Origin: a virus | Taxonomy: Duplodnaviria > Heunggongvirae > Uroviricota > Caudoviricetes | IMG/VR virus record: IMGVR_UViG_3300017971_007904 | Strand: one strand, 5' to 3' | Length of the DNA stretch: 53,925 nucleotides | Shown: piece by piece, positions 45,053 through 46,109 of the stretch | How the letters are laid out: each line of letters starts with the position of its first letter | How positions within the stretch are numbered: the first letter of the stretch is position 1 | The notes under the pieces: model-generated | What the model was told of the DNA's origin: nothing | Seen by the model: only the letters and a program-made list of their open reading frames with translations | Database searches by the model: none | Made by a program: the position numbers and the translations under genes

Positions 45053-45089
45053 CAACCACCACCCCCGGCGAGGCCGGGGGTGGTGGTTT
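45053..45089 (+). repeat. 37-nt hairpin, direct-repeat copy 1 (short U-tract)
   Basis: caaccaccacccccggcgaggccgggggtggtggttt, identical to 46069-46105. Confidence 0.9.
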
Positions 45090-45116
45090 CACCATTTCAA
45101 CAAAAAGGAGAAGATC

Positions 45117-45880
45117 ATGAGTAAGCAAAATCGGAGGTATCTTTAGTAATGAGAAACACTTGAAGAGAGGGTGTCTTTAGCCTTTCCGGCGCTAAGGAGA
45201 TCATCCTTGAGATTCGGGCCGGTGAAGGTGGAGAAGATTCCAAACTCTTCGTTCATGATCTTTTCTCTGCGTACACTAAGCGTGCGCAACATCTTCACCT
45301 CAAGGCCGAACTTCTCGATTCATCTAAGGGTAGCGTCACGGCCAAGGTCTCTGGTAAGGGCGCTGGCAAAGCTTTCCAGCACGAAGGAGGTAAGCACATT
45401 GTTCAGCGGGTACCCCCAACGGAAAAGAAGGGGCGACGGCAGACATCGGTGATATGCGTAACTGTCTTACCGATGCCGCCGAAGCACGAATTGAAGTTGG
45501 TTCCGGAGAACGAGATTGACATCACCTTTTCAGTCGGCCAAGGTCCTGGTGGTCAGCATAAGAACCGGACTGAGTCGGCGGTAAGGATGGTACATAAGCC
45601 TACCAAGCTCCAGGTGTACCTGGACGGTGGCCGGTGCCAGCATCGTAATCGAGCGGAGGCGCATCGCATCCTCTCGGCGAAGGTGAGTCAGTTCAAGGCC
45701 GAACAGGAGCAAGCTGCCTACGATGCGATCCGGAAGGCTCAGTTCAAAGGAACTGGTCGTGGTGACAAGATTCGTACCTACAACTTCATCAAATCCAGGG
45801 CTGTGGACCACAGGACTGGGAAGAAGACGAAAAACGTCAAGGAGGTGATTGAGAAAGGTCGATTTGATCTATTAGAGTGA
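45117..45880 (+). CDS. prfA: Class I peptide chain release factor, RF1-type, lacking domain 1, translated via two +1 frameshifts (~253 aa)
   Basis: EIILEIRAGEGG; VQRVPPTE (PxT); GPGGQHKN (GGQ); KIRTYNF; no ATG/GTG/TTG in frame before the conserved block; AAGGAG SD at ATG 45117. Confidence 0.88.
45132..45180 (+). promoter_or_regulatory. Tandem prfB-type programmed +1 frameshift cassettes
   Basis: CGG AGG TAT CTT TAG (45132-46) and AGA GGG TGT CTT TAG (45166-80); internal SD, 3-nt spacer, CUU, stop. Confidence 0.88.
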
Positions 45881-46069
45881 TCGTCCGGACCACCGCTCTC
45901 CGGAGAGGAAGGTCAGGCCAACTCCGCTTAAGGTAGGAGGGTTCGCCCGCTTGCACTACCGAGGTTGCAACGCAAACAGATCGAGGGGGTGAGCGGCCCT
46001 ATGAGATCGGGTAGCGGCCAACAGATAAATGGTGGTCACGAACAGAAGCCTGCCTATGAGACGATTCTC
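45875..46069 (+). ncRNA. rnpB: Minimal RNase P RNA (catalytic domain with remnant S-domain)
   Basis: P1, P2 gaccacc/ggtggtc, P4 aggUcaggc/gcctgcct with bulged U, P5 caac/gttg then CAA, P6 ccgctt/gagcgg, P7 ggtag/ctacc, P15-L15(GGU)-P16-P17, AGATAAAT and ACAGAA conserved strands. Confidence 0.92.
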
Positions 46070-46109
46070 AACCACCACCCCCGGCGAGGCCGGGGGTGGT
46101 GGTTTTTTT
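46069..46109 (+). terminator. Rho-independent terminator, direct-repeat copy 2
   Basis: Same 37-nt hairpin with a 7-U tract. Confidence 0.9.

Follow-up and report, generated by a model that had tools for sequence, protein, structure and literature searches.

For forty years, the frameshift in prfB has served as the textbook example of how a translation factor measures its own activity, and it has been regarded as specific to RF2. The E. coli site consists of a Shine-Dalgarno (SD)-like element followed, after 3 nt, by CUU UGA C at codon 26; pairing of the SD-like element with the 16S rRNA promotes the slip, and unregulated RF2 is toxic (PMC12421855). A study of 2025 that covered 12,753 bacterial genomes detected no prfA frameshift, and in the 8,164 prfB genes with the motif, the premature stop was TGA in 98.6%, TAA in 1.4%, and TAG in none (PMC12421855). 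Phages encode class-I release factors as well, with RF1 in TGA-recoded and RF2 in TAG-recoded phages, in a report that does not mention frameshifting (bioRxiv 10.1101/2021.08.26.457843). In the literature searchable in full text, we found no frameshift described for release-factor genes of the RF1 type or of phages.

Here we describe a gene in a stretch of DNA of 53,925 nt (the window) from a large phage; as judged from its sequence and those of its relatives, the gene carries the bacterial RF2 switch in doubled form with amber stops, an arrangement that many related phages conserve. A preliminary description of this DNA had placed two consecutive +1 frameshifts of the prfB kind ahead of an RF1-type release factor lacking domain 1, and comparison with relatives backs that reading. 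As in prfB, the window sites combine CUU-U, a stop in the A site, an SD-like element that ends 6 nt before the stop, and, at site 2, a C after the stop; they lie early in a class-I release-factor gene, and the stop is one that the encoded factor type should read. Unlike in prfB, the stops are UAG, the factor is of the RF1 type, and the cassettes are two in tandem in a phage-encoded gene that is without domain 1, where the prfB site lies; moreover, TAG and TGA are about equally frequent as stops across the window's family. The shifty-stop motif of Euplotes is a different one, AAA-UAA/UAG. In Euplotes, +1 slips occur too, at “shifty stops” and sometimes more than once per gene (PMC4759687), but they characterize the whole genome of a eukaryote and do not belong to a regulatory cassette specific to one gene and stimulated by an SD-like element.

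Three frames and two CTT-TAG cassettes

The preliminary description had read the gene in three successive frames, and all coordinates, peptides, and motifs of that reading, together with the closing TGA, were found again in the sequence (Table 1). Past MSKQNRRYL, frame 0 runs into TAG TAA TGA (45144-45152). The final frame, which encodes EIILEIRAGEGG, QRVPPTE, and GGQ, is closed upstream by TGA 45161-45163 and, from that TGA to the conserved block, contains no ATG, GTG, or TTG. The cassettes that had been described as prfB-like and keyed to UAG are present at both sites, each with an SD-like element, a spacer of 3 nt (the prfB value), CTT, and TAG, the CUU-U slippery sequence standing directly before the in-frame stop. 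The base after the stop is C at site 2 and T at site 1; U after UAG is reported to be a strong termination context in E. coli (PMC5289835). The form of cassette 1, (A/C)GGAGG TAT CTT TAG, also occurs in four relatives (L009, L194, L199, and L200), and that of cassette 2, TGT CTT TAG C, is the commonest site form across the family. The 53.9-kb window has only 10 sites with an SD-like element and CTT-stop, both strands counted; that two of these should fall in successive frames at a distance of 34 nt, ahead of a release-factor open reading frame (ORF), is far beyond chance. Folding of the RNA from 45095 to 45250 gave no significant structure (z -1.7), and we therefore claim no downstream stimulator.

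Table 1. Features of the release-factor locus and its flanks, in window coordinates
Feature	Position	Strand	Details
Hairpin repeat, copy 1	45053..45089	+	37 nt, G+C rich, terminator-like, upstream of the gene
Shine-Dalgarno and start	45105..45119	+	AAGGAG 45105-45110, 6-nt spacer, ATG 45117; arrangement common to relatives
Frame-0 leader	45117..45143	+	9 codons, MSKQNRRYL
Predicted frameshift cassette 1	45133..45147	+	GGAGG (45133-37) TAT CTT TAG T; CUU-UAG at 45141-46
Intermediate (+1) frame	45145..45177	+	11 codons, SNEKHLKRGCL, closed by TAG 45178-45180
Short ATG-to-TGA run	45149..45163	+	ATG AGA AAC ACT TGA in the final frame; ATG 45149 lies upstream of that TGA
Predicted frameshift cassette 2	45167..45181	+	GAGGG (45167-71) TGT CTT TAG C; CUU-UAG-C at 45175-81
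Final frame	45179..45880	+	233 codons, RF1-type release factor domains 2-4, stop TGA 45878-45880
PPT tripeptide	45413..45421	+	PxT “anticodon” of RF1
GGQ motif	45548..45556	+	Peptidyl-tRNA hydrolysis
RNase P class A-like short RNA	45877..46072	+	196 nt, begins at the release factor's stop codon; RF00010 48.5 bits, E 1.4e-13, gathering score 100 missed
Hairpin repeat, copy 2	46068..46104	+	Terminator-like, followed by a T run

Comparison of related genes suggests that both upstream frames are translated. The frame-0 leader of the window corresponds to MSKPNRRYL in the relative L194, with synonymous changes at Ser (AGT/TCC), Asn (AAT/AAC), and Arg (CGG/AGG), and the SNEK that begins the intermediate frame is common to the window and L009 in different codons (AGT AAT GAG AAA versus AGC AAT GAA AAG). 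In 13 of 13 genes with two sites, the intermediate frame is open for 11 to 18 codons, and the CTT-stop motif falls exactly at each frame junction. The nearest clade of the window (L001, L003, and L005; 71 to 73% identity) has a single site. In the L001 lineage, the spacer from AGGAGG to the ATG stretch is 1 nt shorter and the first CTT TAG is gone, which fuses frames 0 and +1 into a continuous leader of 21 codons; this is the natural repair expected if both frames are decoded as one polypeptide. From these sequence patterns, it is very probable that two programmed +1 shifts are needed for the full-length factor.

A release factor made of RF1 domains 2 to 4

The best NCBIfam matches of the final frame (P0001) were RF1 models (prfA, E value = 1e-62, versus 4e-43 for prfB and 3e-20 for PrfH), and the product missed the curated equivalog cutoffs (212 bits versus 400 for NF001859 and 203 versus 423 for TIGR00019). 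Pfam placed in it the C-terminal half of PCRF and the RF-1 domain (RF-1, E value = 5e-25), and the best solved-structure match in the PDB was T. thermophilus RF1 residues 105-329 (E value = 2e-42). By sequence, the product is RF1 domains 2 to 4 without domain 1, as the alignment to the RF1 model covers only positions 103-329 of 347. AlphaFold2 run from the single sequence gave a pLDDT of 36.8, and a model from a 64-sequence alignment (pLDDT 91.4) was used in its place. This model matched ribosome-bound RF1 with a TM score of 0.89 and an rmsd of 1.7 A over 233 columns, the TM score being about 0.6 once normalized to full-length RF1 targets; together with the extent of the structure match, this agrees with the earlier statement that the product lacks domain 1.

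The residues Q181, P184, T186, E187, R191, and T194 of T. thermophilus RF1 are kept, the tripeptide being PPT, and QRVPPTE...GRRQTS of the product aligns to QRVPVTE...GRIHTS of 4v63. The tip of helix 5 reads GGEDSK, compared with GG(D/E)EA in bacterial RF1. We considered the His-to-Gln change in GRRQTS as a meaningful one and rejected it, because bacterial RF2 sequences in the comparison set also have Gln there. In the tree, the RF2 outgroup was split off (SH-aLRT 100), and the phage family formed one clade (99) adjoining bacterial RF1; nearly all family members have PxT-type motifs. The PxT motif, the codon readers Q181 and T194, and the position on the RF1 side of the tree thus bear out the assignment to the RF1 type made in the preliminary description, and the window product is predicted to release peptides at UAG and UAA.

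With bacterial RF1 (prfA; TIGR00019 and NF001859), the window factor shares domains 2 to 4, PxT, GGQ, Q181/T186/T194, and the RF1 side of the tree; it differs in having no domain 1, in falling below the cutoff, and in an expression that is predicted to be gated by recoding. Domain 1 of RF1 contacts RF3 and the L11 stalk. Codon-specific release does not need this domain (PMC1586002). The window factor resembles PrfH/RFH, a domain-1-less release-factor homolog paired with RtcB2 (PMC1586002), in being a class-I homolog without domain 1 in which GGQ is kept, but it matches the PrfH model only weakly (TIGR03072, 72.8 bits versus a cutoff of 166.65), keeps the RF1 decoding residues that are altered in PrfH, and has no rtcB partner at its locus, where the upstream gene is an HNH endonuclease. 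The ArfB model (NF006718) gave 27 bits against a cutoff of 100 over 33 residues only, and unlike ArfB, the window factor has the codon-reading domains 2/4.

Like the release factors of stop-recoded phages, the window factor is a phage-encoded class-I factor near tRNA genes, but the window phage uses the standard code. The greedy coding density of the window under that code was 0.92, and the stops of 80 crude window ORFs of at least 70 aa were TAG in 24, TGA in 36, and TAA in 20; the preliminary description had counted at least 17 TAG-ended coding sequences in the window. No suppressor tRNA was found among the 40 tRNAs of the window, and ORF lengths summed under altered codes did not discriminate between codes. 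We rejected recoding of TAG as a sense codon, since frame 0 continues TAG TAA TGA and about 30% of the ORFs end in TAG.

Cassettes across the phage family

Scans of viral, metagenome, and genome collections, together with look-ups of database proteins, yielded about 55 non-redundant short RF1-type loci (designated by L numbers), whose leaders were traced by script and by eye; as a positive control, the same script recovered the classical CTT TGA C at codon 23-25 of bacterial RF2 genes. Among database proteins of about 225 residues, at least 120 belong to the family at 48% identity or more. Two sites were present in 13 non-redundant genes, the window included. The pair was TAG and TAG in seven of these (window, L194, L199, L200, L009, L016, and L113), TAG and TGA in five (L008, L012, L017, L022, and L037), and TAA and TGA in one (L002, from the 595-kb phage record LR756511.1). 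About 25 genes have a single leader site, and in eight others (L029-L033, L046, L053, and L055), a single site lies about 40 codons into domain 2, which places the switch at a second position in the gene. These eight are more distant members that start directly at the conserved block, and their sites, of which GAG TGT CTT TGA C and CGG AGG CAT CTT TAG G are examples, lie about 100 to 130 nt past the start of the match. The homologs thus mostly keep the cassettes, where the preliminary description had allowed that they might be continuous without them.

We computed site statistics over 52 non-redundant family sites. The P-site codon was CTT in 49 (GTT in 2 and TTT in 1), the base after the stop was C in 36, and the codon before the P site was TGT or TGC in 29. 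An SD-like 4-mer at the prfB spacing was found in 33 of the 52, against a background of 9.5% (binomial P value = 2e-21), and many second sites of the relatives are without an SD-like element, that of window site 2 (GAGGG) being weak. The gating stop was TAG in 26, TGA in 24, and TAA in 2. A search of homologs for conservation of SD-N3-CTT-TAG, which had been put forward earlier, therefore upholds the CTT and the SD-like element, while TAG itself is the stop at only half of the sites. Stop identity flips among close relatives, with TAG in L114 versus TGA in L115 and L116, and TAG in L011, L013, and L020 versus TGA in L019 and L023. The first stop of a two-site gene is never UGA, a pattern that is suggestive in a small sample of inter-related genes.

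Some members lack a shift site. In three genes (L014, 2284-2298; L028, 937-960; L043, 2468-2482), an SD-ATG is in frame with a single UGA, a TGA followed by A at codon 5 to 8, and by their sequences these look like readthrough-gated variants. The L043 phage (182 kb) uses the standard code (greedy coding density, 0.91 to 0.93 over 60 kb of the record), and a search for Helicase_C, meant to reveal in-frame stops in related phage records, gave no match in the L043 phage record. A few genes (L198 and L042) have a plain start and no gate; L198 is 65% identical to the window and begins at a plain SD-ATG at 401 (MNEIILEI...). Such gateless close relatives indicate that the gate is dispensable and can be lost in the window's wider clade.

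Further observations concern single members or groups. In L047 and L051, with an in-frame TGA, and in L049, with two in-frame TAGs, a stop falls at one shared alignment column about 44 residues in, and the second TAG of L049 falls on a conserved RF1 Gln; the sequence suggests that L049 comes from a TAG-recoded phage with an RF1-type factor, an odd combination. Seven members with a frameshift cassette (L113-L119) are on contigs of up to 176 kb binned to uncultured Pirellulaceae, and their sites are mostly without an SD-like element. The seven may be prophages, or phages that were binned in error, and the bins hint weakly at planctomycetes as hosts of part of the family. A tiny ORF (ATG, a few codons, and TGA) comes right after the first site in the window, L009, L016, L113, and L199. 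It is probably a by-product of the Ser-Asn/His codons of the intermediate frame, and it might have a role in reinitiation after termination at site 1.

Proposed control of the switch and alternative readings

By analogy with prfB, we propose that ribosomes would start at the SD-preceded ATG 45117 and that, at CUU-UAG (45141-46), the P-site tRNA-Leu would re-pair from CUU to UUU with a +1 shift; 11 codons later, a second shift of the same kind would occur at CUU-UAG-C (45175-81), with 233 codons to follow. Each slip would compete with termination at the A-site stop and would be promoted, as in prfB, by the SD-like element 3 nt before CUU, and ribosomes that fail to slip would terminate and release a peptide of 9 or 20 residues. 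ARAGORN found 40 tRNA genes for 16 amino acids at 22388-44262 of the window and none for Leu, Ser, Phe, or Tyr; the slipping tRNA-Leu would thus be the host's or be encoded elsewhere in the phage. We rejected transcriptional slippage as the source of the frame changes, there being no run longer than T3.

Only RF1-type factors read UAG. Because both A-site codons are UAG, output should drop as RF1 activity, that of the host RF1 plus the phage factor, rises. Output would be roughly the product of two escape probabilities, with low basal expression and a steep rise expected when UAG termination is slow; that doubling gives a steeper response, as the preliminary description had it, is an arithmetically reasonable inference. 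The best explanation overall, which we hold with moderate confidence, would be a 253-residue domain-1-less RF1-type factor that is decoded in three frames and whose output is tied to RF1 activity. Both the slipping itself and its control by RF1 activity are inferred, and for the RF1-coupled feedback as such, we lean slightly in its favor.

The mirror-image RF1 autoregulatory loop that had been proposed for this DNA would fit the window gene, in which both stops are UAG and lie within the set that a PxT factor is predicted to read, but it would not be a rule for the family, in which the stop is outside that set (TGA) at about half of the sites. With 24 of 52 gating stops being UGA and with flips between close relatives, a match between the stop and the specificity of the factor seems not to be generally selected. 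As a PxT factor should not read UGA, the loop is weakened as a general rule: either many members would be gated by host RF2 and not by themselves or their factors would read more than UAA and UAG. Gating by termination capacity would be a safer reading than RF1 autoregulation. Tentatively, and at rather less than even probability, the tandem cassettes might form a two-input AND gate that measures termination capacity, sensing RF1 twice here and RF1 plus RF2 in the relatives with UAG then UGA, so that a huge phage equipped with tRNAs of its own would deploy the factor, possibly independent of RF3, only when host termination collapses. If so, the collapse could follow host shut-off or a defense that hits release factors, and the gate would be without precedent in a bacterial system, both as a natural frameshift that senses RF1 and as a +1 frameshift switch in tandem.

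A rival account accepts the shifts as real and programmed but takes them for a fixed attenuator or a general sensor of termination capacity, in which stop identity is largely interchangeable and the factor need not read the gating codon. We consider this unlikely, if still deserving of attention. The nearly equal use of TAG and TGA in a family whose members are nearly all of the PxT type speaks for it, as do the flips of stop identity, the five two-site genes that pair UAG with UGA, and the in-frame UGA gates of L014, L028, and L043, the last in a standard-code phage. It leaves unexplained why both stops are UAG in the window gene and its six closest two-site relatives and why UGA never occupies the first site of a two-site gene, and bacterial prfB invariably pairs the factor with a matching stop (PMC12421855).

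Two further readings dispense with the shifts. Translation might start at ATG 45149 in the final frame and read through UGA 45161, with the upstream ORF a mere leader peptide. An ATG, a few codons, and a TGA are indeed found in the final frame of the window, L001-L007, L009, L016, L113, and L199, and in L014, L028, and L043, which are without a shift site, one UGA interrupts the frame of an SD-ATG. No such ATG exists in L194, L200, or L002, however; where present, it owes its existence to the conserved Ser-Asn/His codons that the intermediate frame uses, its GGAGG is 11 nt away, too far for a good SD, and neither the openness of the intermediate frame nor the placement of CTT-stop at the junctions of every two-site gene would be accounted for. 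We regard this start as very improbable. To the other reading, a non-canonical start without frameshift at ATC 45200/45203 or ATT 45212, we give hardly any credence. The in-frame AAGGAG (45194-45199) just before ATC ATC would favor it, and gene callers begin several relatives at a GTG or ATG inside the first conserved strand, but the spacing would be 0, 3, or 12 nt instead of the usual 5 to 9 nt, the internal AAGGAG lacks conservation (L001 and L194), initiation there would cut into the first conserved beta strand, and the conserved leader, intermediate frame, and cassettes would be left unexplained. The preliminary description had itself raised a start of this kind, and we found no conserved support for one in the final frame.

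A decaying pseudogene or a pair of indel errors, to which two frame breaks within 34 nt and the 135-aa fragment (P0011) that is all gene callers report for the window gene might point, is extremely unlikely given an independent assembly identical over both sites, a 233-codon frame intact with all catalytic and decoding motifs, the same architecture in many diverged genomes, and no homopolymer longer than T3 at the sites. The independent assembly (L193) is the Logan assembly of run SRR6963591, and it has no indel at either site, the error that the preliminary description had named as one to look for. P0011 occurs on contigs of up to 297,696 bp. A megablast of the locus against phage records gave no match, and the exact 51-mer across both sites was absent from the viral contigs searched.

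A large phage RF1-type family in which the predicted cassette varies in its stop (UAG, UGA, or UAA), its copy number (one or two), and its place in the gene (two positions) would mean that the device is portable and evolves easily, and natural UAG-responsive frameshift sensors would be on offer. A further question is what need huge phages have of a termination factor that is under such tight gating and is without the domain that contacts RF3. For annotation, the consequence is that such genes are reported by gene callers as truncated fragments.

The release-factor gene follows a 22-kb array of the 40 tRNA genes and the HNH endonuclease gene. The RNase P-like match that begins at its stop codon (Table 1) spans the whole 367-position model and lies outside the switch, as a neighboring element; adjoining the tRNA array, it is possibly a phage RNase P RNA of much reduced size. 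The hairpin core occurs only twice in the window (45059-45083 and 46075-46099), as a direct repeat, and its copies bracket the release-factor gene and the RNase P-like RNA in a module of about 1 kb; they may be terminators that arose by duplication or may mark the borders of a cassette that was inserted.
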